This document shows positions 1 to 23,214 of a DNA stretch of 64,000 nucleotides, piece after piece (positions within the stretch are counted from its first letter, which is position 1; every line of letters begins with the position of its first letter). Below the pieces are notes generated by a model. The model was not told the DNA's origin, made no database searches, and saw only the letters and a list, made by a program, of their open reading frames with translations. Source of the DNA: an uncultured virus (IMG/VR IMGVR_UViG_3300046832_003565) (lineage: Duplodnaviria; Heunggongvirae; Uroviricota; Caudoviricetes); the IMG/VR virus record IMGVR_UViG_3300046832_003565. One strand, given 5' to 3'. A program made the translations under genes and the position numbers.

Positions 1-2
1 CA

Positions 3-599: not shown

Positions 600-3513
600 C
601 AATAGATTGATTTTAGCAAATAAAGATTTATTTATTTCCATTTTTAATACTGTAGGCAAGAATTATAATGATTTCAAACAAGTTGTTAATAATTTTGATC
701 CGCCAAGTTTAAGACCTTTAGCAGCCTGGTGTCTTGCAAATAATTTCTTAGATACACTTACTGAAAGTATTGTAAGTGATGTTTCTGCATATTTGAAAAA
801 ATCACCAAAAATTTTATCTGATATTGTAGTAAAAAAAGATAGAGTTGTAATTCTTGGTGAAGAATTTTTGTCCGATCCAAATGATAAAACTTTAGTATTA
901 AGATTCTCAGAATTCATTCATTCAAAATTTCCAATTGAAAGACAAGTAATTAATTCAACCCCAAGCAATATTGACATGACTCCAGTCCTCACTGGCGATG
1001 GAATTAAGATTTATGAAGTATATAATGTAAATGATGCAAGACAAGCTGGAAATGGAACATCATGGTGTATTGCATATAAAGGTGGAGAAAATCTTTGGCA
1101 AAATTATAGAACAGCTGATGAAGCTACATTTTTTATTGTTCACGATGATAATCCACCAACCCCTGATCAAGCCAAAGTGGCAATTGACTTTAACAAAAGA
1201 GAAGTAAGTCTTACAGATTTACCAAACTGGACAGGTGCGGTTTTGTCAAATGGCATGAATTGGAATGAATACAAGGAATATCTCATAAGAAAAAATGTTA
1301 ATGTGGATGCAAAAAGAATTAATCCTGAAACAAACAATGAAGAATTAATTTTAAAAAATAAACCCTTATCCAAAAAAGAAAAAAAATTAGTTTCAGTAAA
1401 AGATTTATTTCAAAGTAGTCGAAATTATTATGGACTAAAACCATTATCTTTGGAAGAAATTAATAATTTTAGAAAAGGAAAAGTTGTACTTAATTTACCA
1501 AGTCATGTGCAATTTTTAGAATACAAATTATCTTTAGGCACTAATTTAGATTTAGATCATTACCATATAACAGGGACGAATAATAGCGGTAGTAAGGCTT
1601 ATTTTCAATTAGAAGTTGAAAAAGGAACACCAGTTAATTTTCAAAAAACCGAATCGCCTGATGGTAATATAGTTGATTCAGTTTCATTTGAAGATGAAGA
1701 TGCAAAAACATATACATATCAGATGATTGGATTAGGACATCCACTCACAGACGATGCCTTCCTTAATCTATTTGATGTTCCTGGCGGAAATCAAACATTA
1801 GTTCAATATATAAACACTGGATTTGTAATACCTAGATTTCAAGAAAACACATTAGAAAAATATCCCAAATATTACAAATCTTATCTGAGGAAATTATTAC
1901 AGGGTGGTAATTATGAGCATGTCATACTCAACCTCAAGTATGATGAATCAGAAATGATTGATGCTTTATCAATAGAAAATGATGAAGAAACATTAGAATC
2001 TGCTGCTCAATTACTTTCTCAAAAAGATTTTACTATAACAGATAGATATCCTCAGATATTGCTATATGCTAAACCAGATCATGAAAGATACATTTTTCCT
2101 GAAAATGATGAATTGTCTCGTAAAGTTGCATATGTAAGTGGACTAGATCCACAACATAGTGAATCTAAAAATCCAGAATATGCCTTGTTGTATTTACTTG
2201 ATAAACCTGCATTGGACAAATTAACCAATGATTTAAAAGCAAACAAATACAACTTGTTAGTTATATCTGATTTTATCAACAAAGATATTCAATCATTAGC
2301 AGAATCTCGTGCAGATAGACAACTTAAAAGTGTTTATACATACAGGTCCCAACCATTACCAGATTATTATCCAGAATCTGAATTTGTAGATGCTTTATAT
2401 TATTTAAAATTTAAACAAGAAATTAATAATCAAATTCTAGAAATTAATATGCTTGATGCAGATGATCGATTTACTGAAGAGGATTACGCTAAATTAGTTA
2501 AAGGAGAAGTTTACGCTTCAATTTTCTTTAATCAAGAAATATATAAAAATACTAACAATTTTGGAATTAGTACTGACAAAAAAGCTTTATTCAAATTTAC
2601 AGATTTTGAAAGTGAAAATGAATATACAGAACATCCATTGATAGAAGGAGCATTAATATATTTAGATAAAGTTTTATCAATTTTTGGACAATCCAAAGAT
2701 GATTTACTTACAGGATTTCTTCAATCATCAGGATATTTTACTGATCAAACAATAGATTTATTATTTTCTAGATATAGCAAAAAAGAAGTTTTTGATAAAC
2801 TAAGCACATTGAGCATTAATGCAGTAAGAAATGAAATATGGACATTCCACAAATATTTTACTTGTTTCAATGATTTTAAATCACTTGCTGCATTATATCA
2901 AATAAGGCAAAGACAACCTTTCGATTCTTATCTTTACAATATAACTCAAGAAGAAATAAATGAACATATTAATGATCAAGATTTTATAAATTTTATCATG
3001 TCTGAAAAACCAGAAATTTTATCTGATGAATTAATTGATAACTATATTATTAACAATGGTTTAGGTACTGCAAGTAAAATAATACTAAATCAAAAAATCC
3101 TAAATAGAGCATACGAACTTTGGAAAGAAAGAAAATTATCACCTCAAGATTTAGGGTGGAATGATAATTTTATTGCAAAACTTGGACAGGAAAGAAACCA
3201 AGGTTTAATAAGTGATGAAGATGTAAAAAGAATTGTAGGTAGTTCAATAGATCATGACACTATTATTAATAATCCATCCCTAACTCCTGAAGAAAAAACA
3301 AAACTGTTGTCTGAAAAATCAAAATTAAAAACAACAGAGCAACCAACAGAACAAATCCCACCTAAAAATATTTCAGAAGAAAATGAAGAAGAACCTACTA
3401 TCGCATCCCTAAAAACAATGGTGAAAATTGCAAGTAAATTAGACCTGAAAAAGAAATATAAATTAGCAGACAAAATCACACAAAAACTTAGAGATTACAA
3501 TGTACAATCATAG
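592..3513 (+). CDS. 973-aa phage protein with WCI (PcfJ-related) domain and C-terminal tag
   Basis: GTSWCIAY...LWQNYR...FFIVHDDNPPTP.QAKVAIDF block shared with 3500..6280 and, more distantly, 56150..58504. Confidence 0.8.
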   Translation: MFNNRLILANKDLFISIFNTVGKNYNDFKQVVNNFDPPSLRPLAAWCLANNFLDTLTESIVSDVSAYLKKSPKILSDIVVKKDRVVILGEEFLSDPNDKTLVLRFSEFIHSKFPIERQVINSTPSNIDMTPVLTGDGIKIYEVYNVNDARQAGNGTSWCIAYKGGENLWQNYRTADEATFFIVHDDNPPTPDQAKVAIDFNKREVSLTDLPNWTGAVLSNGMNWNEYKEYLIRKNVNVDAKRINPETNNEELILKNKPLSKKEKKLVSVKDLFQSSRNYYGLKPLSLEEINNFRKGKVVLNLPSHVQFLEYKLSLGTNLDLDHYHITGTNNSGSKAYFQLEVEKGTPVNFQKTESPDGNIVDSVSFEDEDAKTYTYQMIGLGHPLTDDAFLNLFDVPGGNQTLVQYINTGFVIPRFQENTLEKYPKYYKSYLRKLLQGGNYEHVILNLKYDESEMIDALSIENDEETLESAAQLLSQKDFTITDRYPQILLYAKPDHERYIFPENDELSRKVAYVSGLDPQHSESKNPEYALLYLLDKPALDKLTNDLKANKYNLLVISDFINKDIQSLAESRADRQLKSVYTYRSQPLPDYYPESEFVDALYYLKFKQEINNQILEINMLDADDRFTEEDYAKLVKGEVYASIFFNQEIYKNTNNFGISTDKKALFKFTDFESENEYTEHPLIEGALIYLDKVLSIFGQSKDDLLTGFLQSSGYFTDQTIDLLFSRYSKKEVFDKLSTLSINAVRNEIWTFHKYFTCFNDFKSLAALYQIRQRQPFDSYLYNITQEEINEHINDQDFINFIMSEKPEILSDELIDNYIINNGLGTASKIILNQKILNRAYELWKERKLSPQDLGWNDNFIAKLGQERNQGLISDEDVKRIVGSSIDHDTIINNPSLTPEEKTKLLSEKSKLKTTEQPTEQIPPKNISEENEEEPTIASLKTMVKIASKLDLKKKYKLADKITQKLRDYNVQS

Positions 3514-6280
3514 AATTATTATTGCTGGTTTAAGAGATGATATCATTAAGATATTTGAATATCATGATAGTTTTGATCAATCACAAATATTAGCAGCAAT
3601 AAATATAATAGATGAAAAAGATCCTAACACCAATAAACCAAAAATAAATAATTATTTTAAAACATTGGCAGCATGGATAATCTCAAGAAATAATGAACCA
3701 CATGAAATAATTGAATCTCTTGAAAAAGCAATTCGAGCAACAAGAAATAGATCCGATGAAGAAAAATTACAAGTAAGTGACATAAGGGTGAGACTTGATT
3801 CTGTAATTATCAAAGAAAATAAATTTTCAACATATATAGAACTCTCCGAATATGTTCATGAAAAATATCCCACAATTATTGTTGATGAAAAAAAATCAAC
3901 AGAACAAAAAACTAGTAATGTTTTATATAATGATAATGGAATCACAATATATGAAATAAATGATGTTGAAGAATCGAGAGCAGCATCCTCAAATACCAAC
4001 TGGTGCATTGGAAAACCAGGCGGTACAAACATGTGGCAATATTATAGAGATCACCATGCATCCACATTCTTTATAGTACATGATGAAAATCCACCAACAC
4101 CACAACAAGCTAAAGTGGCTATAGATTTTCAAAAAGATCGCATAACACTTACAGATATTCCAAACCATACAGGTATACAATTAACAAATGGATGGAAATG
4201 GGAAGATTATCAAAATTATCTCATGGAAAAAGGAGTGAATTTTAATGCCACTAGAATTAATCCCGAAACCAATGAAGAAGAATTAATATTTAAAAATAAA
4301 CCAATAGATAAAAAACAAGCTCTGCAAAACGCAACATTTAGAAATCTCATAAATCTTAATATAGAAGATCTTAAAAAATGGCAAAACCAAAGATCTGTAA
4401 TTGTAAAAGATACAATAGATTTTTTTGAAGAACTAACAAACCCTGTAAAAACATCCGATAGAAGAGAAAAATATGAAATTGATAATCCCGATGCTGTAAA
4501 TTATTTATCAAGATGGTTAGCTCTTGGAGCACCTGTAGATGATGATGTTTTTAAATTCATTGTAAATAGCACAAGCAATAAACCATTACTTGAAAAATAT
4601 CTCAATTCAAATGTCAATCTTTCTACAAATCAATTAGATTCAATAAAAGACAACAGAAGCTGGCTAACAACATACATAAGAAAACAAATACAAAAATTAG
4701 AAAGTGCAAGACCAGCTGAAAGAGTTCTTAGAAATGATCTTTTTCTTGATCTCATAAATCTTAACAATGATCCACTCCTGCTCGAATATGTAAAAATAGC
4801 AAACACAACAACACAAACCCCAATTATCATTGGAGGATTTGGAGTTAATCAAAGATATAGTTCACAAGCACATTACCTGATACAAGACCCACAATATAAA
4901 GAAATAATAAAAGAAAATATAGCAACACAACCACAATTCTCAGTACCATTAGAAATAAAATTATATGATTTCGATAATGAAAAAGATAAACAATTATTTC
5001 TAAATCTTGAAAATAAATATGCACTTGAAAAATTTATTTATGATGATAATAGATTCCTAAATTTACAAGACTCAAGCCAAAGAATAATTGACATAAAAGA
5101 TGCAACATTTGCAAATGTATTTGATAATCAATTAAGACATAGATTAAATGAATTCGATTTCAAAAAATATACAATCAGCCCAGCAGGATACATTTTAGCA
5201 TCCCTGTTCTTCACAACTCGACGCATTTCTTGGGAACACACAATAAGAGATGCCTATATCAAAATTCTTGAAAACCAAACAGACCCAGAAGCTAAATTAA
5301 AAATTGATAATTTCTATGACCAACTAAATCAAAATGTTAATGATCCAACTTTCTGGAAATCAATAATCATAAAATTGCCCGACTATTTTAGAGATGCAAG
5401 TTTACATCTTAAAAATGAATACTATGACAAATTATTACAAAGAATACCAAACAATATAAAAAATAATAAAGAAATCATATCAGCACTATTAGATAATGAA
5501 AAAACACCACCAACTTATATCGCAGGACTATACGATATCGAAGACAACTACACACAAGATCTAGTTGACATTATCTTAGAAAAACATGTAAAAGATTTCA
5601 AAACATTCATGACTTTCTTTAGCTGGATTAAAGATGCAAAATCAAACCTACCATTCGATGTATTAGAAAAATTAATGCAAACAAATCCAGAAATAATTAT
5701 GGATGTACAAAAAGATCCATACATAGAAGACTATATGAAAGATTTTAGTCGAGGATACACCAAAACAGATATAGGGAAAAAAATACTAGAAAGATATTTT
5801 GAATCAAATCTTGATACAGATAATATAGATATCAACTTTGTATACAACTCTTATTTCAAAGATAAGAAAAAAGTATCACTACAAGATCAACTATTTCTCA
5901 ACAGAAATCAACCAGAAATACTAGGAGATTTAATCAACTACTTTGGAGTGTTCGTGATAGCAAAATTAAATCCCGAAATTGTAGCAAATATAACAAACCT
6001 TTACCCACAATTGAAAAAAACAATACAAGAAGAAATCAAAAAAACTGGAGATCTATTCTATACACCAGAAGAAATAAAATATTTCGAAGATGAAGAAAAT
6101 ATAGAATCTAATATAGAATCTAATACAAATACAGACCAAGACATTCCTGATGATAATGATACAGATGTATTCAAAGAAGCTAAAATCAAAACACTATTGA
6201 AAATAGCCAATATACTGGACAAAAAACAAAAATATATATTGGCAGATGTAATAACTATGAAAATGAAAAATCCCCTATAA
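3500..6280 (+). CDS. 926-aa paralog of 592..3513
   Basis: TNWCIG...MWQYYR...FFIVHDENPPTPQQAKVAIDF; ends LLKIANILDKKQKYILADVIT. Confidence 0.8.
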   Translation: MYNHRIIIAGLRDDIIKIFEYHDSFDQSQILAAINIIDEKDPNTNKPKINNYFKTLAAWIISRNNEPHEIIESLEKAIRATRNRSDEEKLQVSDIRVRLDSVIIKENKFSTYIELSEYVHEKYPTIIVDEKKSTEQKTSNVLYNDNGITIYEINDVEESRAASSNTNWCIGKPGGTNMWQYYRDHHASTFFIVHDENPPTPQQAKVAIDFQKDRITLTDIPNHTGIQLTNGWKWEDYQNYLMEKGVNFNATRINPETNEEELIFKNKPIDKKQALQNATFRNLINLNIEDLKKWQNQRSVIVKDTIDFFEELTNPVKTSDRREKYEIDNPDAVNYLSRWLALGAPVDDDVFKFIVNSTSNKPLLEKYLNSNVNLSTNQLDSIKDNRSWLTTYIRKQIQKLESARPAERVLRNDLFLDLINLNNDPLLLEYVKIANTTTQTPIIIGGFGVNQRYSSQAHYLIQDPQYKEIIKENIATQPQFSVPLEIKLYDFDNEKDKQLFLNLENKYALEKFIYDDNRFLNLQDSSQRIIDIKDATFANVFDNQLRHRLNEFDFKKYTISPAGYILASLFFTTRRISWEHTIRDAYIKILENQTDPEAKLKIDNFYDQLNQNVNDPTFWKSIIIKLPDYFRDASLHLKNEYYDKLLQRIPNNIKNNKEIISALLDNEKTPPTYIAGLYDIEDNYTQDLVDIILEKHVKDFKTFMTFFSWIKDAKSNLPFDVLEKLMQTNPEIIMDVQKDPYIEDYMKDFSRGYTKTDIGKKILERYFESNLDTDNIDINFVYNSYFKDKKKVSLQDQLFLNRNQPEILGDLINYFGVFVIAKLNPEIVANITNLYPQLKKTIQEEIKKTGDLFYTPEEIKYFEDEENIESNIESNTNTDQDIPDDNDTDVFKEAKIKTLLKIANILDKKQKYILADVITMKMKNPL

Positions 6281-6296
6281 TTTAGGGGACTTTTTT
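6267..6296. terminator. Bidirectional intrinsic terminator
   Basis: TCCCCTA-loop-TAGGGGA with A-run before and T-run after, between convergent genes. Confidence 0.65.
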
Positions 6297-7038
6297 ATAT
6301 GCTTTGCAACAACTCGATGGCTCGATCAGCCAATCTGTATTTACCCTGATGCTCCAAAACAGAAGCCACTCTTATTAATCCTTTACAATAAGCCTCAATG
6401 AATGGATCTTTACCTAACTCTTCTTTAGCTTTCATTTCAGCTTCTGGATCATAATCAGATGTTAAATTAAACACTTCCAAATATTCACGAAGATATTCTT
6501 TCTCACGATCCGATAAACCGGAATCTTCTCTAGATAAAACAAAATTAATTTTTTCCACCACTTCTTTAGGATTTCGAACATTGTCTGTAATAAACTTTAC
6601 CAAGTCTTGATAATTACATATCCTTAATCGCGAAAGCAAATTAATCCCATGTTGTTTTAATTCCAATAAAGCATTGTATCTATCTTCAACAGTAATATTA
6701 ATACCATCTACAGATAAACCACTCTTAGCAATACTTCTACCCTTATTCTCAACAAACATTCTCAAATTGTTTTCTGGAGTTGTTTCTTTACTAAATACTT
6801 CAATAATCTTGTCTTTTAAATTAGCATTCTTCACAACATCATTGTCGAAGATCCAAGATTTCGAAAAAACCTTTGTAAGTTTATTTGCTAGTGATTCTTT
6901 AGAACTTTCTAAAATTTTATCTAAATCAGATTTCGAAGCTCTATGATATAAGCCTTCCAACTTATCATAAAAACTAGACATCGTCATCGCTCTTTCTAAA
7001 TTGACAATCTCTATAATGTTTGAATCTTTTGGTTCCAT
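6295..7038 (-). CDS. Hypothetical protein with C-terminal tag
   Basis: 247-aa ORF ending LIRVASVLEHQGKYRLADRAIELL. Confidence 0.7.
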   Translation of the reverse strand: MEPKDSNIIEIVNLERAMTMSSFYDKLEGLYHRASKSDLDKILESSKESLANKLTKVFSKSWIFDNDVVKNANLKDKIIEVFSKETTPENNLRMFVENKGRSIAKSGLSVDGINITVEDRYNALLELKQHGINLLSRLRICNYQDLVKFITDNVRNPKEVVEKINFVLSREDSGLSDREKEYLREYLEVFNLTSDYDPEAEMKAKEELGKDPFIEAYCKGLIRVASVLEHQGKYRLADRAIELLQSI

Positions 7039-7039
7039 A

Positions 7040-7840
7040 ACTAAGATATTCTATAAAGATAATAAATTCACTTTCTAATTTATCCCATAGAGAAAAACAA
7101 TATATATAACAATATATCAAATATAAATACTATAAAAAACGTATATAGAATAAAATAGAATCAATAACCTTTGCCAACAATACCATTAGGATAAAATAAT
7201 CCTAAATTACATTTCTCATATCCTAACTGTAGGCTCAAAGTGTAAGAAAATATCCCATTACACTAAGTATAAGAAGTTAGTGGAGACCAAATGGATGCCT
7301 GGTGGAGACTTGGTGGAAAGATAAGGGAGACTTAGTGGACACTGTAACCCTATTTTTAAAAGGTATAGAAGAATTTATAGATAGATATAAAGATATAACA
7401 CTGTGATAATCTTATCATCTACCATACCACACAACACCTTACAAGAAACACATTAAAGAAAAATCCAACTCAAAAATGATGAGATGGATTTTTTTAGGAT
7501 AGAGAATAAGAATTTCGAGCAATATATACCTTAATATTAAAATAGGAAAAAAGGGATTTGTAGGAATTTCAACTATTTGGATGTGAAAAGCTGTGGGGTT
7601 CCAATACGACCATCACGGATAAACACAAGACATTTTATTATACAAATATATAATATGAGTCGTAATATATACTATTCTACATGGGAAAAAAACTTTCCTT
7701 TTTTACGTTCAGGAATTTCGAGCAAAAACTTTAAAAACATTTGAACCTATTTGAAGTGCGAGAGAAGGAGCTTTTTCTTCCTAACATTACACCTTAAATA
7801 GGTTCAATAATTATTGGTTATAGAGATTTAGAATTTCGAG
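7040..7840. other. Candidate replication origin
   Basis: About 800 bp without a credible ORF; AT-rich tract near 7090-7165; iteron-like repeats; visible C>G to G>C skew flip. Confidence 0.55.
7278..7343 (+). repeat. Six tandem 11-bp iteron-like repeats, consensus TRGTGGAGACT
   Basis: TAGTGGAGACC AAATGGATGCC TGGTGGAGACT TGGTGGAAAGA TAAGGGAGACT TAGTGGACACT. Confidence 0.8.
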
Positions 7841-7841
7841 G

Positions 7842-8648
7842 CTAGATAAAAAAGGTATTGTTTTCTTTTTGTTTTATTAGAGGGGCGTAATCTGTTCTGT
7901 CCCATTGATGAAATAAATAATAATCTTGATTTTCGAGTGTTTGTACTTTGTTATTATTAAAGTTTACAGATATATTTTTCCATTTGATAGCTTCACCAGT
8001 TGCGCAGAAATTATCTGTTAGAGGGTGGCATATTTTTACTGTTGGGTCGGTGGCAAAATATTTGTAAAGATAGTTTAAGGTAGCTTGATCTAAGAATATT
8101 TTTTCATTTACTCTATTAGCATTTAAAAATATCATAAGACAGAAATCAATGTATCTTGAGGTTTTGCCACCAGAGATGCCACCTGATAATACAAATGAAT
8201 TTTTATAATCTTGTTGATGTCCGAAAGTATTTTTATTTAGGAGATCTGCCCACCAGAGGTTGCATTCATTTTCTAACACTTTCATGCCTTCTGCTACTAC
8301 AAATAATTCTTTATCTTTATATTGTTCAAAGAAATGAAAAGGATCATTTTGAATAATAACATCTGCGGGATCTATGTGTAATACAAAATCAAATTCTTCT
8401 CTATGTAAATTTAAAAACTCATAGTATGCAATGAATCGATCTCTGCAGTAATTTTGTATTTCGTGTTTTGGCTCATATACATAATCAAAATATTTCTCTA
8501 ATTCTTTTTTATTTTCATTTGAGATTTTCGAGACAACTATTGCTTTTTTAAAATCTTTATATTTGGTAAGAGATCGGAACATAATTTCGGATCCCATTGT
8601 GAATAAGTTTTCATTGCCTTGGAAAAATGTAATAAGAAGATTTTTCAT
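7842..8648 (-). CDS. Putative GT-A fold glycosyltransferase
   Basis: HIDPADV (DxD-like), GGISGG, DQA and HQWDR motifs; start moved to MKNLL. Confidence 0.65.
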   Translation of the reverse strand: MKNLLITFFQGNENLFTMGSEIMFRSLTKYKDFKKAIVVSKISNENKKELEKYFDYVYEPKHEIQNYCRDRFIAYYEFLNLHREEFDFVLHIDPADVIIQNDPFHFFEQYKDKELFVVAEGMKVLENECNLWWADLLNKNTFGHQQDYKNSFVLSGGISGGKTSRYIDFCLMIFLNANRVNEKIFLDQATLNYLYKYFATDPTVKICHPLTDNFCATGEAIKWKNISVNFNNNKVQTLENQDYYLFHQWDRTDYAPLIKQKENNTFFI

Positions 8649-8670
8649 GTTGTTCTTGTACAGTATAGAT

Positions 8671-9234
8671 ATGTTAATACATTCATATAGCATTTCGAGG
8701 GTTAATGGTCCAGGAAAGAGATTTGTATTGTGGACTCAAGGCTGCAGCAAAGCATGTAAGAATTGTTACAATCCTGAAACTTGGAAATTCGAGGGAGAGG
8801 AGATGAGCCCTGAAAGAATATTAGAGCTAATTAAGAATTTCGAGGTGGATGGAATCACTCTTACTGGAGGAGATCCATTAGAACAAGAAGATATTTTAAT
8901 ATTGTTAGAGATGTTATATAAATTAAATTTACCCAAAGGGATTATTTTATTTTCTGGATATACATTTGATGAAATAAATAATTGTTCTTTGAGGGAATGT
9001 TTTAATTTTATAGATGTTTTAATAGATGGAAAATTCGAGGAAAGTTTTAAAATAACAAATGGTCTTAGAGGTAGCAGTAATCAAAATATAATATCTTTTT
9101 CGAACAAGATTTTCGAGGAAGAAATATCTATAGATCACGAAATAGAAATTGGAGTGTTAGAGGAACAGATATTTTTAACTGGATTTCCCAAGTTAGATAA
9201 AAAATACTTAAAAGAACTTGGTGTAATTGTATAA
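8671..9234 (+). CDS. NrdG-like radical SAM (4Fe-4S) protein
   Basis: NGPGKR..WTQGCSKACKNCYNP, LTGGDPLEQ, DVLIDG, LRGSSNQ; start moved to MLIHS. Confidence 0.85.
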   Translation: MLIHSYSISRVNGPGKRFVLWTQGCSKACKNCYNPETWKFEGEEMSPERILELIKNFEVDGITLTGGDPLEQEDILILLEMLYKLNLPKGIILFSGYTFDEINNCSLRECFNFIDVLIDGKFEESFKITNGLRGSSNQNIISFSNKIFEEEISIDHEIEIGVLEEQIFLTGFPKLDKKYLKELGVIV

Positions 9235-9255
9235 AAATAATGTCTGGGGGATATT

Positions 9256-9450
9256 ATGAAAGATGAACAATTGCTCAGAGATATTTTAATAGATTATATT
9301 GGTTTTTTCTATCATGGAGTATTAAGCCCTAGAGCGCTGCGAAATGCTATGAAGATTTTCGAGGAGCTCTTAGATCTAGGCGCAGATATGAGCGATTATA
9401 TTCCAGTGATGAGACAAATGCAATATGATTTAGATATGGTAATGGTGTAA
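9256..9450 (+). CDS. Hypothetical protein
   Basis: ORF preceded by GGGGA, in a + strand run. Confidence 0.55.
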   Translation: MKDEQLLRDILIDYIGFFYHGVLSPRALRNAMKIFEELLDLGADMSDYIPVMRQMQYDLDMVMV

Positions 9451-9451
9451 A

Positions 9452-9718
9452 ATGAACGCAGTAACAGCAGCTATCAGTTTAGTAAAAAATGAATTGGAAC
9501 AATTAAAAAAAGTTTTTGATAAATCTTGCGAAGAAAGAAAAAAAAGTTTGAAAAATCTTTGCGAGATATGTGAAAAAAATCCAATAACAATCGATCACCC
9601 AATCAAAGGAGAACCAGTGATAGATGTTATAATCGATGGTGTAGAAAAAATGCAATTAAATATGGCATTTCTCTGCGAGGAATGTTTTGATAAATTGTCT
9701 GCAGCTAACAAAATTTAA
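9452..9718 (+). CDS. Small CxxC..CxxC zinc-binding protein
   Basis: CEIC and CEEC motifs. Confidence 0.6.
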   Translation: MNAVTAAISLVKNELEQLKKVFDKSCEERKKSLKNLCEICEKNPITIDHPIKGEPVIDVIIDGVEKMQLNMAFLCEECFDKLSAANKI

Positions 9719-9780
9719 AAAGAATAATAAGAGACAAGGGACTTTTTCGAAGGTCCCTTTTTTTGTGATATGATAGAAGT

Positions 9781-10680
9781 ATGAATCTTTCCCTCTGTTG
9801 CATATCGAATATATTATCTGAGAAAGATATTAAATTTCGAACAATGACGTTTAAGAGTTTTTCGAGCAAATCGAGGGAAGAGTCATTAGAGAAGCTGTCC
9901 GGAATAATTGCTAATAATTTCTTAGTGACAGAAAAAACAATTAGACATTGCGCTGCTAATAATATAAAAGGGTATAGATTTTCGAGCGATCTCTGTCCAA
10001 TCATTAATCATCCAGATGTTAATTTATCATTAGAGGAGCTGCCCAATTTTAAATTAATAGATAATGAAATTAAAAAAGTAAAACTTGCAATTGAGGAAAC
10101 AGAAATTCGAGTGGGTGCGCATCCGAGTGAATATATTTCCCTAACATCTGAAAATGAAAATGTAATAAATAATTCTATAAAGGATCTCGAGCAGCATGCA
10201 GATATATTTAATAGATTAGGTTTATCAGAGTCCTATTATAATCCTTTAAATATTCACATTAGAAAAGAAGGCGATGCAGATTTTCTTTGTAATATTTTTA
10301 TGAAGAATTTCGAGCGATTGAGCTGCAGCGTTAAGAGCCGATTAGTTTTAGAGAACAATGACACTGGGTCTACCTGGGATGTTCTTAATTTGAAAAAGTA
10401 TTTTTGGCAGCATTACAATATACCAGTAACGTTTGACAATTTGCATCACAAGATGTTGAACAATGGAGTAGCTGAGCGCGATGCATTTTTCGAGGCATAT
10501 GAGACCTGGAATGATACAATACCTATATTCCATTATTCTGAGGGCAAGGATAACGGAAGAGCTCATAAGGACATGGCTGAGCATTTACCGGAAGATTATG
10601 GCAAGGAAGTTTTGTTCGATGTGGAACTTAAAAGTAAAGACTATGCCATACTGGATATCTTGAGGAGGGCTGAATGTTAA
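9781..10680 (+). CDS. uvsE: UV DNA damage endonuclease (UvsE/UVDE)
   Basis: YRFSSDL, AHPSEY, LNIH, RLVLENND, PVTFDNLHH, HYSE, AHKD, DVELKSKD motifs. Confidence 0.92.
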   Translation: MNLSLCCISNILSEKDIKFRTMTFKSFSSKSREESLEKLSGIIANNFLVTEKTIRHCAANNIKGYRFSSDLCPIINHPDVNLSLEELPNFKLIDNEIKKVKLAIEETEIRVGAHPSEYISLTSENENVINNSIKDLEQHADIFNRLGLSESYYNPLNIHIRKEGDADFLCNIFMKNFERLSCSVKSRLVLENNDTGSTWDVLNLKKYFWQHYNIPVTFDNLHHKMLNNGVAERDAFFEAYETWNDTIPIFHYSEGKDNGRAHKDMAEHLPEDYGKEVLFDVELKSKDYAILDILRRAEC

Positions 10681-10928
10681 CAATTGAAAAAATCGAGGCG
10701 ATCACTTTAAATACAGTTGAAAAATATTTAAAAAACTGTATGAGAGTTTCTAAGATGGAAGGAAAACACACTAGAAGTATTTGGTTTAAAGACTATAATG
10801 GTGAGTTTACCGTATTTATTTACTCGCTGCTAAATAATTCATCCACAGTTCTTGCAACAGTGGAAGGAATGCCGTATAATTGTTCTATCTCAAAAGAGGA
10901 GTTTTACCGCACTTTTAACTCCTATTAG
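10674..10928 (+). CDS. Hypothetical protein
   Basis: ORF overlapping the uvsE stop; GGAGG upstream. Confidence 0.55.
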   Translation: MLTIEKIEAITLNTVEKYLKNCMRVSKMEGKHTRSIWFKDYNGEFTVFIYSLLNNSSTVLATVEGMPYNCSISKEEFYRTFNSY

Positions 10929-10929
10929 A

Positions 10930-11157
10930 ATGGATATCATGAAACCAAGATACAATATGGCTAATCCACAAGAATTACCCACTAATAAACAAGTGGATTA
11001 TTACTTCGAAGACAATGAAACTAACATTATTCTCGAAATAACAAATATAGTGCTGAACAATTTAGAATTTCGAGATTTTATTGGCGAAGAAATTGATTTG
11101 AGCGATGAGGCTCTATCAGAAATTTCGAGCAAATTAAAAAAGATTTTAAATGGCTAA
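10930..11157 (+). CDS. Hypothetical protein
   Basis: Start moved to MDIMKP; fills the operon gap. Confidence 0.5.
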   Translation: MDIMKPRYNMANPQELPTNKQVDYYFEDNETNIILEITNIVLNNLEFRDFIGEEIDLSDEALSEISSKLKKILNG

Positions 11158-12061
11158 GTGTCTTGTGTTAGGGGCAGATGGTTTTCTCGGAAGCCATCTG
11201 TCCATGTCCTTAATTAAAAATCATACCGTGGTGGGATATGATAAATTTAATCATGGAAGAATTCTAGATTGTGATATTGAGAAAATCGAGGGAAACTTCT
11301 CAGATCCTTATAGATTAAAAAAAGCATTAGAGGGAGTGGATTATGTTTTTAATTTTATCTCTTCTTCTAATCCAGCTAAATCTTTAAAAGATCCATTGTC
11401 AGATATTGTACATTTGCAAACTTCTGTTAATTTTATAAACATGTGCTGCGATGCTGGTGTGAAGAAAATAATATATCCATCCACTGGCGGAGCTATTTAT
11501 GGAAGATGCTCTGATAAACCTTTTAAAGAAGACGACGCGGTAAATCCAATATCTCCATATGCTATTAATAAATTAGCGCTAGAGGGATACTTAAAATATT
11601 TTAGAAATTCGAGGGGATTAGATTATGTTATATATCGAATCTCCAATCCTTATGGTCCTTTACAAAATGTTACAGGAGCTCAAGGGATCATTCCAATTTA
11701 TTTAAACAATATAAAAAATAATCTCCCATTAGATGTATTTGGTGATGGCTCTATGAGGCGCGATTATATTTATATTAAAGACACAATAGATATGATCTGC
11801 AGCTCTTTTGAAAAAACATCCCAGGACATATATAATTTAGGTTCTGGCTCATCTCATACAATAAATGATATTATTTATGAAATATCAAAAGTGACAAAAA
11901 AATCTGTGCAAATAAATTATATGCCAGAGAGAGCTACAGATATTAAAAATGTAGAGCTAGATATGAATAGATATTATAATGAATATGGTACCAGAGCTAG
12001 CACATCATTATCAGAGGGTATTTATCATACCTGGCAATATGTGAAAAATATTTCCCAGTAA
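11150..12061 (+). CDS. NAD-dependent epimerase/dehydratase (nucleotide-sugar)
   Basis: GADGFLG Rossmann motif, STGGAIYG, YAINK (YxxxK), RISNPYGP, RRDYIYI. Confidence 0.92.
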   Translation: MAKCLVLGADGFLGSHLSMSLIKNHTVVGYDKFNHGRILDCDIEKIEGNFSDPYRLKKALEGVDYVFNFISSSNPAKSLKDPLSDIVHLQTSVNFINMCCDAGVKKIIYPSTGGAIYGRCSDKPFKEDDAVNPISPYAINKLALEGYLKYFRNSRGLDYVIYRISNPYGPLQNVTGAQGIIPIYLNNIKNNLPLDVFGDGSMRRDYIYIKDTIDMICSSFEKTSQDIYNLGSGSSHTINDIIYEISKVTKKSVQINYMPERATDIKNVELDMNRYYNEYGTRASTSLSEGIYHTWQYVKNISQ

Positions 12062-12118
12062 TCATTGCACTAAATCCCAGCCTCTGATAAGATAAACCAT
12101 CACACGGAGGAATCCTAA

Positions 12119-12919
12119 ATGCCGAACTGGGTTATGAACGAACTCACTTGTATTTTTCAAACACCGGAAGAGTACAATGCTTTTAAAGAGAAAGCAAATC
12201 CCGAATCTTTTTATAATTCTTTTATTCCTATGCCATTAGTCTTAGAGGGAACATTATCTCCTCATATCGCTCCCGGTAATTTTATCGAAGGAGTGAATAA
12301 GAAAAAAGGTACAAAATTCCTTACACTTGAGGGAATTGTAATGGAAGGTATGTCATCTCAACGAGCAAATGATATGCTTAAGAATGTCAAGTCGTTCATT
12401 GAATTGTTAGCATCAGATACATTTTCCAGTGAATCTATGAAGTATAGCAAAAAAATGATTGAAGACCTTAAATTATATGAATCAATATTAGAAAAAAATA
12501 TAATCATTGATGAATGGGATGCTCAACTTGCTAGACAGATAATACAAAATATCAAAGCATTTGAAGAGACTGGCTATCATGAATGGCATTCTTGGAGCAA
12601 TGACAACTGGGGTGTCAAGTGGGATGCTGTCAGATGTACATCTAAAGAACTGTCTGATTTCAACACTCTTGTCTATACTTTTGATTCTCCTTGGGGAACA
12701 CCAGAGCATTTCGTAAGACAACTATCATCATTGTATCCCGATGCCACATTTGAAATGGTATCTGGCAGTATTGAAAATGATACCCATTATGAGTTTACTT
12801 GTTGCGATGGAAATTTCGAGGAGACTTGTTCCTATGAAACATTCAAAGAAGCAGTAGTGGATGGTAAATGGGGTGGATGGAATGAATGGGCAGAAATGTT
12901 TCAGGAAGATGAAGAATGA
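12119..12919 (+). CDS. DUF1281/YubB ferredoxin-like family protein
   Basis: MPNWVMN start, W..W..DNWGVKWD, FDSPWGTP. Confidence 0.75.
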   Translation: MPNWVMNELTCIFQTPEEYNAFKEKANPESFYNSFIPMPLVLEGTLSPHIAPGNFIEGVNKKKGTKFLTLEGIVMEGMSSQRANDMLKNVKSFIELLASDTFSSESMKYSKKMIEDLKLYESILEKNIIIDEWDAQLARQIIQNIKAFEETGYHEWHSWSNDNWGVKWDAVRCTSKELSDFNTLVYTFDSPWGTPEHFVRQLSSLYPDATFEMVSGSIENDTHYEFTCCDGNFEETCSYETFKEAVVDGKWGGWNEWAEMFQEDEE

Positions 12920-13158
12920 AAATAGGATTTCGAGTAGTGGGCACTCTAGAAGTGCCCGATGACATTATTCTTCATGAAGATGTTTTAAATCAATTATATG
13001 CATTAGAGATGAATGACAAAATGTATATGCTCCAAATGTGTCTTGTTGCTGAAAGTCCTCAAGGTGAATATGAAATGGTTCACATGGCAGAGGAAATGGA
13101 AGAACATTATTTTAAAAATGTTCGATACAGTGACGCTGAGTTTTTCGAGTTAGATTGA
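12916..13158 (+). CDS. Hypothetical acidic protein
   Basis: ATGA-coupled to the upstream ORF. Confidence 0.6.
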   Translation: MKIGFRVVGTLEVPDDIILHEDVLNQLYALEMNDKMYMLQMCLVAESPQGEYEMVHMAEEMEEHYFKNVRYSDAEFFELD

Positions 13159-13376
13159 CAGTAAAAGTTGCTAAAACTATAGCATCTCAATCTAAAAACC
13201 TGCAGTGGGATAATATTTCTCTTGATTTTTATTTTGTATCTCATATAGGATATAATTTATATAAGAGAAAAACATCCCACAACTACTGGCGGTTCATTGT
13301 ATCAGATGATAAAACATCTTGTACATTTATAATGTATCAAAAGGATAAATCTCATGACTGTGCGAGAGTTGATTGA
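13155..13376 (+). CDS. Hypothetical protein
   Basis: Coupled ORF in a + strand run. Confidence 0.45.
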   Translation: MTVKVAKTIASQSKNLQWDNISLDFYFVSHIGYNLYKRKTSHNYWRFIVSDDKTSCTFIMYQKDKSHDCARVD

Positions 13377-13575
13377 AGAATTAAATATTGTTGCTGAAAA
13401 ATATGGCGACAAATTCCCCTGTATTCTTTCTGTAGATGATGATCATTCTCATAATGAAATTGATTTAGATGAAGTCAGATTAAATTCATATTTCGAGACA
13501 CAAGATCAAAAGGTAGCACTTTGTGGAACACAAGAAATATATGAAGAACCAGAGCCCTTAGAGGACGACGAATAA
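13354..13575 (+). CDS. Hypothetical phage protein (MTVRELIEEL type)
   Basis: AAGGA RBS; common small phage-protein N-terminus. Confidence 0.6.
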   Translation: MTVRELIEELNIVAEKYGDKFPCILSVDDDHSHNEIDLDEVRLNSYFETQDQKVALCGTQEIYEEPEPLEDDE

Positions 13576-13628
13576 ACTTTTTCGAGGGAGATTGCAAAAT
13601 CTCCCTTTTTTCATGATATAATACAATC

Positions 13629-13826
13629 ATGGAAAACTTGAAGTGGATTCGAGCAATGAGTGACCGTTTAAGAGATGAACTGTCAAAAGAATATGATGAT
13701 GAAACAAAAGATTTAATTATTCGAGCTTTTATGCAAGGATTGTATCAGCAGCCATCCATTGTAGAAGAACTTAAATCTTCTTCTCTTATTGAATCTGATT
13801 ATTTCGAGGATGAAGAGAGTAATTAA
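13629..13826 (+). CDS. Hypothetical protein, leaderless
   Basis: TATAAT 6 nt before ATG. Confidence 0.6.
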   Translation: MENLKWIRAMSDRLRDELSKEYDDETKDLIIRAFMQGLYQQPSIVEELKSSSLIESDYFEDEESN

Positions 13827-13830
13827 AAAA

Positions 13831-14085
13831 ATGATTCACTTATTAAGTTTATTTCTCATCTTGAGTGCAGACCCAATCAAGAATTTCGTATCTTTAAAAA
13901 CTTACATATCAGAGAACGCGAAAGCTCATTGTTATGTTTACTTTATTAATGAAGACATTCCAGATTTTCCCAGAGTAAATATAATTGAAAAAGATAAAAA
14001 GTCATTTTTCGAGTATTTGGATTCAATCGGAATAGAGCACAACAAAGTTGGCAGTTATTATTTCTTCATTAGGAAAAACAAATGA
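13831..14085 (+). CDS. Hypothetical protein with signal-like N-terminus
   Basis: Start moved to MIHLLSLFLILSA. Confidence 0.45.
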   Translation: MIHLLSLFLILSADPIKNFVSLKTYISENAKAHCYVYFINEDIPDFPRVNIIEKDKKSFFEYLDSIGIEHNKVGSYYFFIRKNK

Positions 14086-14121
14086 CAAACAAAGAAATTC
14101 GAGTGATTGTATAAAAATAAT

Positions 14122-14796
14122 ATGCTGCCCATAGATATCTTTTATCATTCATATTGTGTAAATGACTTCGCGTCAATCCTCATGAACAAACTTAAGAAAT
14201 TAAGAATGTCAGGATTGCTAGATGCATGTGACAATTTTTATATCCTAACATCCAAAGCTCATGAAAGACATTTAGATTTTTTCGAGGAGCTGCAAGATAG
14301 TAGTCAAAAAATAAAAGTAATACATTTAACAGACACACCTATTGGAAATGAATGTGATACTTTTAATTGGATGAGAGAAAAATTCGAGGAATTCGAGCAA
14401 GAGAGAGCTATATTTTATTTTCATTCTAAAGGTGTTTCATATACCAATCCTGTGTTAAAAAATAATGTAGGCAATTGGGTAAAGTATATGGATTTATATT
14501 ATATACATCATTGGAAAACCCACATGAGAGCACTAGAGAATAATGACACTTCTGGTGCATTTATGATATCAGACCCAGCTCACTACTCTGGTAACTTCTG
14601 GTGGACTAAAACTTCACACTTGAAAAAACTTCCATTGTTAGATTATAATAATGTTCCACTTTTAAACAGAGGTGAATTTTGGATTGCAAGTTTAGCTGAT
14701 ACTAAAATGTTTAACTTGCCAAGATGTGTGGAAATTAATTTTTATGAGAACAATTATTTAAATATTCATGATTTTCCAAGTAGAGAATGGATTTAA
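14122..14796 (+). CDS. Putative glycosyltransferase-like protein
   Basis: YFHSKG..W..YM..HYSGNFWW..E.WI pattern seen in phage/large-virus glycan-related proteins. Confidence 0.55.
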   Translation: MLPIDIFYHSYCVNDFASILMNKLKKLRMSGLLDACDNFYILTSKAHERHLDFFEELQDSSQKIKVIHLTDTPIGNECDTFNWMREKFEEFEQERAIFYFHSKGVSYTNPVLKNNVGNWVKYMDLYYIHHWKTHMRALENNDTSGAFMISDPAHYSGNFWWTKTSHLKKLPLLDYNNVPLLNRGEFWIASLADTKMFNLPRCVEINFYENNYLNIHDFPSREWI

Positions 14797-14944
14797 ATAA
14801 TTGACGGTTTTATAAATCAGCGGTAGATCTCTACCGCTGATTATGCTTTTGAGCAAATATATTTTTTTTCAGGAATAGGTTTGTTTTTTCTGGCGTTACC
14901 CTAAATGCTTTGGTAAAATAGTACATCATTCTTAGGAGAAGATA

Positions 14945-16255
14945 ATGAGCGATACGAAATCTTACCTTGAACTGGACGATGAACCAGTGAAAGTACAACC
15001 AAACCAGTCAGTGTTTAACCCTGTAGCATCCTTTCAAGTTAAGGAAGGTGCTACCGCTAAGCAAGATGCGAATGGCAATTGGATAAACGCCATCGGTCTT
15101 CAGTCTACAGCATCTCATCGCCATGTGTCCAAGATTTGGCAGGACAAATGCACACCATTGGCAGACTTTGTTGCCGATGTTAAAGAGCAGGCACAATTTA
15201 AGCGTGACATTGTTAAGCCTGAATCTGAAATTCGTTTACTTGACATTGATACTCTTATTGATGGAACACCTGTCAATGAATCAGGTTTGAATTCATTGCG
15301 TATGTTCACTGATATGCCATCATCAATGGTTTCATTCTTGCGTGAAAAGAGTTATGGCGAAACTCTCACCAAGATTCTCAATGATGAATTGGATTCTCGT
15401 GAAAATACTTGGAACAATTCTGGTAAACAGCCAAGAGAGTTCCGCGTTCGTGTTCGCCATGATGATGATGGTAATGATGTCATTCGTGCCATTGTATCTG
15501 AAAGATATGGTGTTATCGACAATCATGAAGCAATTGACATGATTGCAAATTCCTTACCATCGTTGTCAGATGCTCTTGCCTCACACATTTCCCATGATGG
15601 TGATGATATGTTTGGCAATGTACTTTTGCCAGATTACATGAAATCTGAACCTGATTCAGACTACGGTGTAGGGATTTCATTTAGAAACTCTGAAATCCGC
15701 AATGCTACATTCAAAGTATCACCATTCTTGTTCCGAGCAATTTGTCTCAATGGTATGATTTGGGGTAGACAAGATTCTGCCATCCAAATCAATCAACGTC
15801 ACATGGGCAAAATCAATACACAAGAATTGCAAGAACAGGTACGCCTAGCAATTGCTGTTGCATTGACACAAGGTAATGATATGTTAACCTTGATGGGATA
15901 TTCCAAGAAAGTCAAAGTGAACAATGTTCTTAATGTTATCGCTCTCTTAGCAAGAGACAATAAGATGACCATGGAACAGGGTAAAGCATGGCACAAGGGT
16001 TACTTGGAAACTTTGCAAGAAACAACGGGTGATATAGCAGAAAATACCGCATTTGGTATTGTCAATGGTCTCACTCGTTCTGCACAATCATATTCTGGTA
16101 GTCTACGTGAGGCAATGGAAACTACAGCTTCAATGATTCTTGCACCTGCCATTGATTCTGATTTGCAATCCATGTCTAAGAGATGGGGTCAACTTGATGA
16201 CCGAGCCAAAGACCTGAAACAGGCAACAGCGCAACAGTATGCATTTGTTGCATAA
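14945..16255 (+). CDS. DUF932-like phage protein
   Basis: RAIVSERY..IDN, NSEI, RAICLNG, H.G motifs; AGGAG RBS. Confidence 0.7.
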   Translation: MSDTKSYLELDDEPVKVQPNQSVFNPVASFQVKEGATAKQDANGNWINAIGLQSTASHRHVSKIWQDKCTPLADFVADVKEQAQFKRDIVKPESEIRLLDIDTLIDGTPVNESGLNSLRMFTDMPSSMVSFLREKSYGETLTKILNDELDSRENTWNNSGKQPREFRVRVRHDDDGNDVIRAIVSERYGVIDNHEAIDMIANSLPSLSDALASHISHDGDDMFGNVLLPDYMKSEPDSDYGVGISFRNSEIRNATFKVSPFLFRAICLNGMIWGRQDSAIQINQRHMGKINTQELQEQVRLAIAVALTQGNDMLTLMGYSKKVKVNNVLNVIALLARDNKMTMEQGKAWHKGYLETLQETTGDIAENTAFGIVNGLTRSAQSYSGSLREAMETTASMILAPAIDSDLQSMSKRWGQLDDRAKDLKQATAQQYAFVA

Positions 16256-16440
16256 CTAAACCACTACCACAAAACCCTTCAGATAGCAATGTCTGGGGGG
16301 TCTTTTTTTTAATTTGACCATTGTTTTATTCAGGGGTATAGGCATACCCCTGAAATATGGTTTTAGCAAATAAAAACAAATTACCCTAAAAACTTGCATA
16401 GTAAGGATATTTTTGATATATTAGTAGTGAGGAATTTACT

Positions 16441-18438
16441 ATGAAGATTGATGTTAGCAATGATTTGACCATCTCCGGTGGTTCAATTTCATCATCCAAA
16501 TACGGTATCAGCGAAGAGAATGCGCCATTCGTCATTAAGATGATGATTGACAATTTGTATTCAAACAAGCCTTTGGCTATCATTCGTGAATATATCACAA
16601 ATGCATGGGATGCTCATGTCGATGCTGGTATTTCTGACAAGCCAATTGAAATTACCGTACCTACCATGTTCCGTCCAACATTGTGCATTCGTGATTTTGG
16701 TAAAGGTCTTTCACAAGAAGATGTTCTGCATTTCTACACCCAGATGGCAGATTCCCGCAAGCGTCACACTGATGATTTTGTAGGTGGGTTTGGCATTGGA
16801 TGTAAATGTGCATTCTGCTATGTGCCATCTTTCACCGTCACATCTTTCCACAATGGCAAAAAGATGGTGTTCAATGCATCATCGTCTGGTGCTGTACCTG
16901 AAATGAATCTGTTCTATGTGGAAGACTCTACCGAGACAGGTTTTATGGTGCAGATTGATGTTAAGTCTGATGATGTTTACACTTTCCGCAATACCTTGAT
17001 GGATTTTCTTCAGTTCTTCAACCCAAAGCCTATCATCATAAGTGACAGTTATTTCAGCATCCCCGTCTGTGCTAACAAGCTCTTGGAAATGGATGATTGG
17101 TATTGCGTAGATGACCGATACTCCAAGAACCAAATAATTCTTGGTAACGTCCCTTACAATTTTGATGTAAGTATGCTCAAGCTCAATGCCGATGAGAACA
17201 AATTGTATGAAAGCCTTCACACTGTAAAATTTGTCATTCAAATGTCACCCAATGATTTGAATGTGACTCTCAACCGTGAATCTTTAGAATACACTCCGAA
17301 GACTATCAACGCATTGAAAAGCAAATACTTGGAATGCCTATCTGAAGTCAAAATTGCTTTGATTGCAAAGTACAACAATGTAACATCGGTATGGGAAGCC
17401 AAACTACTATACAAGAAATTAGGACAGAAATTCAATTTGTTCCCCGAAGTCGATGGTGTTAAGATTTCAAGTTACAATGCCAATGTTTCAGATTTCAAAT
17501 TCAAAGAGCGAATGTGTAAAAATTCAAAACGCTGGAGCAGTGAATCAAGTGTGATTTGTTGCGACAGTACAGTGATATTTGTAGCACGACCTAACATCAC
17601 CGCCAATTCAATCCGACCAAGAATTGAAGACTACTTTGAAATCAATGGCATAGACTCCGAATGCAGTACAAACAAATATCATTACTTTGTCTTTCGTACC
17701 AATGAAGACGCAGATGAATTTGTAAACTCCACACATATCCGTGGTGCTAACATCGTTGAACTAGATACCATACCTTACATAAGAGTTACAGCCAAAACAT
17801 CCCGTATCATAAGAATTCAATCCCCATGCTACGTTTATCAGCATTCTTACTACGGTAATGGCACTTTTACTGATTGTAAGAAAGATTTAGGTAATGATTC
17901 TGGCGTTTATGTTCCAATAGCGCACTATAAGCCACATAATATGTACCATCTCGGTAAAATGGATACTTATGAGAAAATTAAGACCGAACTGGGCTTAGAT
18001 AACATTTATGGTATCAAAAATGTCGATTTACCCAAGCTTGGTGACAATTGGAAGAAATTAGATGTCTATCTGCAAGAATACTTTGATAGTTATGTAGCAG
18101 AACATCCAGATGCGCTCTTAACTTACGTCCTTACCAGACACATTCCAAGAGCATTCAAATCTTTCAATGAGAAGCTTGACTTTGATTACAAATACAAAGA
18201 TTTATATGCTAAGATTGCCAATAACAGCGATTCTTGGGACTATCGTGTATCCAAAATACGCAGTTTAGTAGGTTATGGTGCAACTTATTCATGCCCTGAA
18301 GCAGATTTATTGATTAAAACGCATAAAGAATGTGTTGAAGAATACTCTTTCCTTGATTTAGTTGATACCCATTCAAATCCAAGCGATAATCAATGGAAAA
18401 TCATTCATAAATACATCAAAATGCACGAATTAGCGTAG
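16441..18438 (+). CDS. rIIA: rIIA-like protein with N-terminal GHKL ATPase
   Basis: LYSNKPLAIIREYITNAWDAH, IRDFGKGLS, GGFGIGCK, NRESLEY; directly upstream of rIIB. Confidence 0.9.
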   Translation: MKIDVSNDLTISGGSISSSKYGISEENAPFVIKMMIDNLYSNKPLAIIREYITNAWDAHVDAGISDKPIEITVPTMFRPTLCIRDFGKGLSQEDVLHFYTQMADSRKRHTDDFVGGFGIGCKCAFCYVPSFTVTSFHNGKKMVFNASSSGAVPEMNLFYVEDSTETGFMVQIDVKSDDVYTFRNTLMDFLQFFNPKPIIISDSYFSIPVCANKLLEMDDWYCVDDRYSKNQIILGNVPYNFDVSMLKLNADENKLYESLHTVKFVIQMSPNDLNVTLNRESLEYTPKTINALKSKYLECLSEVKIALIAKYNNVTSVWEAKLLYKKLGQKFNLFPEVDGVKISSYNANVSDFKFKERMCKNSKRWSSESSVICCDSTVIFVARPNITANSIRPRIEDYFEINGIDSECSTNKYHYFVFRTNEDADEFVNSTHIRGANIVELDTIPYIRVTAKTSRIIRIQSPCYVYQHSYYGNGTFTDCKKDLGNDSGVYVPIAHYKPHNMYHLGKMDTYEKIKTELGLDNIYGIKNVDLPKLGDNWKKLDVYLQEYFDSYVAEHPDALLTYVLTRHIPRAFKSFNEKLDFDYKYKDLYAKIANNSDSWDYRVSKIRSLVGYGATYSCPEADLLIKTHKECVEEYSFLDLVDTHSNPSDNQWKIIHKYIKMHELA

Positions 18439-23207: not shown

Positions 23208-23214
23208 TTGGTTA

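Follow-up and report, generated by a model that had tools for sequence, protein, structure and literature searches.

We describe here a one-way field of short DNA words in a 64,000-nt stretch (the window, numbered from its first letter) of an uncultured virus of the Caudoviricetes, IMG/VR record IMGVR_UViG_3300046832_003565. Between positions 7514 and 14397 of the window, the + strand carries 32 copies of the hexamer TTCGAG and the - strand a single one (position 11032). The field is a property of the place and not of the genes that it crosses, and selection writes its core, W-TCGAG, through a variable arm of early-type genes upstream of rIIA/rIIB. The window itself is part of an uncultured large phage that belongs to a family of lake jumbo phages. 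We tentatively read the field as a Chi-like array that would control a strand-tracking helicase-nuclease.

A field of co-oriented TTCGAG words

Counted on both strands, the window contained 44 TTCGAG, of which only 8 on the + strand and 3 on the - strand lay outside the field; the copy at 23268 is there because it belongs to the T-loop of a tRNA-Met. In 1000 dinucleotide-preserving shuffles of 7401-14500, the + strand carried a mean of 1.42 copies (standard deviation 1.16, maximum 6) compared with the 32 observed, and the local enrichment in the field was about 20-fold. The initial annotation of this DNA, made from the letters alone, had spoken of about 30 co-oriented copies on the + strand, a single reversed copy and about one copy expected by chance; the counts agree with all three figures, and all eleven of its example coordinates were recovered.

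The flanks of the word were also biased. Of the 32 field copies, 22 had A at -5, 20 had G at -4, 23 had T at -1 and 23 were followed by G or C, giving an extended form A(-5) G(-4) A W T-TTCGAG-G/C in the window; by these flank counts, the longer form first proposed, AATTTCGAG[GC], was roughly right. After pooling of relatives, the conserved core was W-TCGAG followed by any base except A. The information in the word was limited to W-TCGAG-S plus a weak A at -5, short of the roughly 13-bp asymmetric site to which a monomeric repressor binds in a stoperator network, and no repressor was identified. A weaker polar companion, TTAGAG(G), accompanied the word in the window field (13:1 and 8:0). The words were irregularly spaced at a density of about one per 220 bases.

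7514-14397, + strand: polar word field, 32 TTCGAG on + against 1 on -, core W-TCGAG-notA, with a TTAGAG(G) variant
39944-40076, + strand: small group of three words, + oriented, in the - strand gene 39613-40221

This small group, distant from the main field, places three TTCGAG in a 133-base part of a gene with no assigned function. The same three sites are present in the nearest record, G001, which overlaps the right part of the window.

Word direction does not follow the genes

The field runs through genes on both strands, of which the following carry words.

7842-8693, - strand: opposite-strand gene, real by its 79.5% identical protein on the same relative strand in relative L003; words 7932 and 8527 lie in it in + orientation
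8706-9234, + strand: anaerobic ribonucleotide reductase activase-like radical SAM gene (nrdG); four in-frame words, and word 8694 overlaps the ribosome-binding region
9781-10680, + strand: UvdE-type UV endonuclease gene (uvdE); five words in three frames
11150-12061, + strand: nucleotide-sugar epimerase gene, found in one relative only (L003); one word
13629-13826, + strand: gene for a 65-aa protein; three words, at offsets 19, 91 and 174
14107-14796, + strand: gene for a 229-aa protein of no assigned function; it carries the final three words (two of them the doublet 14383/14392), each conserved in L003

Shuffling of synonymous codons in the 15 open reading frames (ORFs) of the field, a procedure that retains the inflated usage of TTC, GAG and CGA, gave a mean of 6.5 copies (standard deviation 2.1, maximum 13, 2000 shuffles) compared with 27 in-ORF copies observed, one of which was counted twice in overlapping ORFs. 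The enrichment thus persisted when codons were preserved, and it was localized both in the window and in the near-complete relative G006. Field genes used TTCGAG for 11 of their 17 Phe-Glu dipeptides, against 1 of 34 in 25 other genes of the window. Fifteen words of the window field were in frame 0 and 12 in frames 1 and 2, with the remainder outside ORFs, and across nine representative fields the frames 0, 1 and 2 held 91, 34 and 44 words.

The positions of the words relative to gene starts were like those of random points. Among the 231 words of the nine fields, with genes of the relatives taken as simple longest-ORF calls, 79% fell in coding sequence and 21% in intergenic DNA (16% of random points), and 6% fell in opposite-strand ORFs (10% of random points). 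The distance from a word to the next start codon was that of random points, and positions within genes were flat. In the - strand ORFs of 20 loci (16.8 kb), 23 words kept the field direction and 2 were reversed; several opposite-strand field ORFs carry Pfam domains, such as Methyltransf_23 and DUF3431. The gene uvdE provided a further contrast: it held 3-5 words in the 11 of 15 relatives in which it lies inside the field and none in the 4 of 15 in which it lies outside, including G002, where the gene sits just past the end of the dense field.

The direction kept in opposite-strand genes, in all frames and in gaps, together with the contrast between uvdE inside and outside the field, indicates a polar signal for which a one-way tracker or a single-strand reader is the natural class. 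The core of 5-7 bases, the strict polarity, the irregular spacing and the indifference to genes likewise point to reading of one strand by something that moves along or copies the DNA; these properties do not fit a static duplex-binding regulator. Of the first proposals, that the words occupy intergenic DNA and genes of both strands was correct, as was their + orientation free of coding strand and gene borders; the Chi, KOPS, primase and packaging signals offered with them are candidate readings.

Ordinary causes, namely promoters, codon or peptide bias and assembly artefact, are contradicted by the results, and we regard them as extremely improbable. Frame 0 (Phe-Glu) is indeed the commonest, and three non-coding words are followed by TATAA-like sequences. 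The codon shuffle nonetheless leaves most copies unexplained, and Logan contigs from three DNA runs, each of a different study, contained the identical sequence, and the field is kept in dozens of relatives. As promoters the words were rejected: no -10/-35 partner was found at any fixed offset, there was no excess near gene starts, and the promoters of the clade are a different element.

The field in relatives

The field of the window lies before a DUF932 gene and the rII genes.

14945-16255: DUF932 protein gene, between field and rIIA
16441-18438: rIIA
18628-19794: rIIB

A word field was found upstream of rIIA in dozens of distant relatives. At loci anchored on rIIA, whose product is mostly about 30% identical to that of the window, most showed TTCGAG co-oriented with rIIA in the 10 kb upstream, with ratios such as 26:0, 37:1, 33:0, 30:0 and 32:0. 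In 11 relatives, the 78 kb upstream of rIIA held TTCGAG at 249:5, ATCGAG at 46:1 and TCGAG at 297:9. Among viral loci anchored on uvdE, 13 of 19 had TCGAG ratios from 28:0 to 56:8; the remaining 6, without a field, were mostly more distant, and one was a 4.8-kb fragment. Alignment of genes with those of four relatives (67-70% nucleotide identity) showed 37-56% of the window words kept unchanged, compared with 15-18% of other hexamers. About half of the words of each partner were lineage-specific, so that density is kept up through turnover. The DUF932 gene, which has no words in the window or in L003, is inverted in L002, L003 and L004 relative to the window.

In G006 (358 kb, 89% complete), the dense field is the only one. 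TTCGAG occurred 55:0 within 29 kb (168.6-197.5 kb), and the other approximately 329 kb held 39 copies, 29 reversed and 10 in the field direction. Outside the field the word did not track gene direction in G006, and a KOPS-like genome-wide skew with a switch at a terminus was not seen. The partial genomes G002 and G003 gave the same single-field picture. In shuffle comparisons, TCGAG was below codon-shuffle expectation on both strands outside the field in four records. For G006 the shuffle comparison gave 24 observed against 69 expected in the field direction and 53 against 68 in the opposite one; we make no claim of a genome-wide purge of the field direction, because this pattern was seen in G006 only and was not repeated in G002, G003 or the window.

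An AT-rich hub at the onset of the field

The words begin in a non-coding region with phased repeats.

7039-7840, no strand: AT-rich non-coding hub, GC content 0.288, between the divergent gene 6295-7038 (- strand) and the field; it holds words 7514, 7717 and 7835
7280-7342, + strand: iteron-like GTGGAGAC boxes in 11-bp phase, at 7280, 7302 and 7335, with degenerate copies between them

The GTGGAGAC boxes were also present in the hubs of G002 and G006 (1.2-1.5 kb) and of L014 and L098, making five phages in all. The onset of the window field is about 170-240 bases downstream of the boxes, and in all five phages except G006 the boxes were followed by the first word after about 60-480 bases, with none seen upstream. 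The hub had been called a putative origin: the AT-rich region with phased boxes stands, but it has no excess of DnaA boxes and is at most a putative origin. No common contig ends were found at the hub.

The G006 hub (191560-192770, L114) bears about eleven co-oriented CAC(C/T)ATTAGAG-like boxes besides TCGAG words and GTGGAGAC boxes, and the hub of the window has weaker versions near 7080-7250. Hub sequences also hinted at a TAGAG partner box upstream of the word; this was rejected, as the box was found in 26 of 914 contexts, about the chance level.

Hairpins, promoters and further genes of the region

Three hairpins lie in or next to the field.

9736-9759, + strand: terminator-like hairpin inside the field, followed by the promoter-like element TGATATGAT and then the uvdE start codon
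13584-13607, + strand: terminator-like hairpin whose left arm overlaps word 13581, followed by TGATATAAT, six bases and the ATG of the 65-aa gene
14815-14842, + strand: hairpin with a 12-bp stem, 418 bases past the last word

The last of these is the palindromic element just before which the cluster had been said to stop; with two hairpins within the field, that boundary does not hold. The promoters of the clade consist of a terminator hairpin, a TGATATAAT-like element, six bases and ATG, and such units were located at 9760-9783, 13608-13631, 19905-19931, 21190-21216 and 21923-21949. From their sequence, they look like extended -10 promoters with leaderless mRNAs, and they resemble the promoter plus stem-loop cassettes of T4-type hyperplastic regions. 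A related phage of a sister clade (L092, 1-11610), one of the six uvdE-anchored loci with no TCGAG field, has a highly regular 35-base promoter, CTTAAAAA-N14-TCTATAAT-AGT-ATG, at about 18 of 20 gene starts marked by AGTATG, which again would imply leaderless transcripts.

The 65-aa protein was 74-95% identical in 18 relatives whose rIIA is mostly about 30% identical to that of the window. Comparison with 12 relatives showed each of the three words in its gene at an unchanged offset in some of them, and in G002 and G006 the gene lies near the downstream end of the dense field. It was found in 4/4 field-bearing records and 0/5 records without a field, a correlation that is confounded by kinship and in which fragments cannot show absence. 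The predicted structure is a three-helix bundle with an acidic tail (pLDDT 80.6), and the acidic C-terminal motif is invariant. The protein gave no PDB fold match at E <= 0.001 and no match to a Pfam or DNA-binding family above threshold, and the Atlas placed it in unnamed viral clusters only. Logan contigs of the three DNA runs break at this gene, with a depth peak of about twice the local depth at 13692-13747, which suggests a segment shared among co-occurring phages and not genome ends.

To the left of the hub, two large proteins (592-6280) had no family or solved relative. Over 1-5400, which covers these two large genes, contig depth was about half that of the rest in the three DNA runs, with several alternative branches, suggesting strain-variable versions of the proteins. 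Four tRNA genes were called in the window. One of them, an ARAGORN tRNA-Tyr of 69 bases with anticodon ATA at 23140-23208, adjoining the tRNA-Met, is unusual and may be false or degenerate.

Genome context and possible host

The sizes of G001 (52 kb at 15% complete) and G006 (358 kb at 89%) indicate a genome of probably 350-400 kb. Among deposited phages no close relative was found. A phage DNA search with 7200-15000 was empty, and a viral-contig search with rIIA alone gave no match. The replisome encoded by G006 is of bacterial type (Pol III alpha, clamp, clamp loader, a DnaG-type zinc ribbon and a DnaC-like loader), and the same genome has genes for gyrase A, for three factors of the sigma-70 family, for chaperones and for a NusG homologue. 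A prepilin-type gene of the window (52005-52973, N_methyl plus DUF1559) had its best bacterial matches in Armatimonadota bins, at 92% and 74% on short contigs, followed by matches of at most 47%. This pilin-like gene is a lead to the host phylum, possibly Armatimonadota. A literature search returned no paper joining jumbo phages with Armatimonadota, and among the matches listed for TTCGAG with phage there were only primers or papers unrelated by title.

Candidate readers of the words

Our tentative first choice, itself no better than possible, is that the field acts as a Chi-like array on a strand-tracking helicase-nuclease. It is ranked first because Chi provides the only documented co-oriented, locally concentrated short words in phage genomes. 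The enzyme, of the host RecBCD/AddAB type or phage-encoded, would enter at or near the hub, track one way and read the words on one strand; each word would have some chance of switching it from degradation to a protected, recombination-ready state. If replication or packaging starts at the hub and makes a DNA end there, the adjoining one-way array might save and recombine that end, and a dense array beside a defined entry point would make functional sense. All three elements of this account, namely the enzyme, the DNA end and what the words do, are inferred. A short asymmetric word with strong orientation bias, as in Chi, was found throughout (32:1 in the window, 249:5 in the 11 relatives and 55:0 in G006).

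Several results weigh against this choice. In five Armatimonadota genomes, chosen as candidate hosts through the one pilin-like gene, TTTCGAGG was not over-represented relative to the reversed-word control (95/115, 257/200, 128/127, 222/396 and 144/113), and a 2.29-Mb contig showed no clear replichore skew of the word. G006 has its own RecA, RecJ, SbcCD-like pair and RuvB, at odds with dependence on the host's recombination enzymes (for the phage described here, the window covers 64 kb). Known Chi clusters are about tenfold less dense than this field. Words also occur upstream of the GTGGAGAC boxes in G006 and L081. No physical DNA end was located. Depth, taken from contigs and not from reads, was equal over the field and the right flank (20.7, 14.6 and 23 against 23.5, 15.6 and 29.1); it does not support a collapsed terminal repeat, and that explanation was set aside.

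Reading during transcription is possible but more doubtful. The words would be read on the non-template strand or in the nascent RNA of rightward transcription from the hub, either repeatedly loading or re-setting an elongation factor, as a many-copy ops-like signal for a phage NusG, or marking RNA for processing, and read-through would take polymerase antisense across the few opposite-strand genes. The non-template strand is where RfaH reads ops. Coding sequence on the + strand makes up about 74% of the field, which has its onset in a promoter-bearing hub and contains internal terminators; in addition, the starts of nrdG and of the gene divergent to it are 12 bases apart, so the nrdG promoter must lie within or beyond that gene. 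A NusG homologue (PF02357) was present in 3/5 field-bearing records and in 0/4 related field-less ones, one of them 94% complete, but this correlation is confounded by kinship and the two NusG-negative field records are fragments. The phage NusG is, moreover, of the full-length housekeeping type, with a NusG, 8ehq_G, as its closest solved chain (E 1e-39), and a Pfam scan detected no PF02357 in the window among the 21 ORFs of 592-19794 and 45 of the ORFs called beyond 19.8 kb. Neighbouring units with the same hairpin and TGATATAAT promoters (rIIA, rIIB, 19929, 21214 and 21947) have no words, nor does uvdE outside the field; known ops elements are single leader sites, and the density of words in opposite-strand genes is only moderately lower than that of random points. 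The RNA run X20 gave a few short unstranded contigs at 95-99% identity, uninformative on transcripts. A broader proposal, which we regard as doubtful, is that the field is a private strand-specific address label marking one arm of a chromosome of roughly 360-400 kb, read single-stranded by a phage factor other than a nuclease. Candidates for this reader are the 65-aa protein and the clade-specific NusG homologue, for which the words would be ops-like sites spread by the dozen along the arm; the reader would set the arm apart from the remaining genome in transcription, replication or entry. It is unlikely that the words form a docking lattice for a phage DNA-binding protein, whether as a one-way roadblock shutting early transcription in the manner of stoperators or as a coat for compaction or protection. 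The 65-aa protein, encoded within the field and conserved with it, would be a candidate partner, and repressors of Cluster A mycobacteriophages bind more than 20 asymmetric, orientation-dependent sites (PMC9283540). The field core, however, spans no more than 5-7 bases, no half-site to partner it was found within +/-40 bases, the spacing is irregular, the words do not turn with the local gene, most lie in coding sequence whereas stoperators occupy short intergenic spaces (PMC9283540), and the 65-aa protein matched no DNA-binding fold or family.

Control of replication by an origin in the hub appears less probable still. The words would serve for priming on the lagging-strand template, or would stop forks from one side and so make replication from the hub unidirectional; a rightward fork from the hub would have the + strand as its lagging-strand template, and the AT-rich hub with phased boxes conserved in five phages and the bacterial-type replisome of G006 would suit such a role. 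DnaG-type primases, however, use trinucleotides, and priming is needed genome-wide and not in 7 kb only; known fork barriers need sites of about 20 bp, and the hub, which has no DnaA-box excess, is at most a putative origin. A strand-specific mark related to modification or restriction, with the field as self-mark or decoy, we consider very unlikely. An asymmetric 6-mer with A at position 5 is the form used by BREX-type and Type III-like methyltransferases, which TTCGAG fits; methyltransferase and nuclease-like cassettes occur in and around the fields of relatives, and the depletion of TCGAG outside the field points the same way. Evasion of defence, on the other hand, predicts loss of sites and not a 20-fold gain, and evasion of Type III systems needs one direction genome-wide, whereas G006 retains 29 reversed TTCGAG.

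Should the words restrain a helicase-nuclease, an uncultured host lineage (possibly Armatimonadota) would have its first candidate for a Chi-like word, and jumbo phages would be shown to gather such words at a single locus with ten times the density known so far. Should their reader be a phage factor, the virus would be labelling part of its chromosome in a new manner. In both cases the field provides a conserved and sharply defined marker, easy to score, for one arm of the genome in a large family of phages from lakes.

Comparison with known systems

KOPS and SRS, which orient FtsK and SpoIIIE, are short polar words read by a translocase independently of genes, skewed over replichores and converging on dif. 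The field shares the short, polar, gene-independent words, but it is one local field with no consistent genome-wide skew. The ops element, read single-stranded during elongation by RfaH and other specialised NusG paralogues, is likewise a strand-specific word, 12 bases long and present once or twice per operon leader, where it pauses the polymerase. The field differs in its 30-55 copies running through genes and not in a single leader-proximal element. A NusG-family gene, housekeeping-like, occurs in 3/5 field-bearing records, the window being the 64 kb covered in this phage. Type III evasion of the T7/EcoP15I type places all sites in one orientation without enrichment, unlike the reversed copies of G006 and the roughly 20-fold local enrichment.

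Chi in phages is the nearest likeness. In PMC12315714, phage LLS is reported to have 20 Chi sites in active and 3 in inactive orientation, concentrated near one end, and Pseudomonas phage MD8 a ratio of 32:0; the Chi-rich lambdoid phages described there are those without recombination modules. The Chi sites of LLS, MD8 and P1 resemble the field in being a short asymmetric word far above chance, almost all in one direction, concentrated in one part of the genome, within genes in any frame, gained and lost, but they are the 8-base Chi of the host at about 1 per 1.9 kb over much of the genome, in phages with no recombination genes of their own (PMC12315714). The field has a core of 5-7 bases at about 1 per 220 bases, confined to 7-29 kb of a genome of roughly 360-400 kb; its word is not enriched in the five candidate host genomes, and G006 carries RecA, RecJ and SbcCD-like genes.

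The operators and stoperators of Cluster A phages (L5 gp71) resemble the field in being more than 20 copies of an asymmetric site; theirs has an essential orientation and is read by a phage protein (PMC9283540). These 13-mers occur genome-wide, in promoters and in short gaps between genes, and are oriented with local transcription (PMC9283540). The field, by comparison, has a 5-7-base core, lies at a single locus with 79% of its words in coding sequence, and keeps its direction in 23 of 25 words within opposite-strand ORFs.

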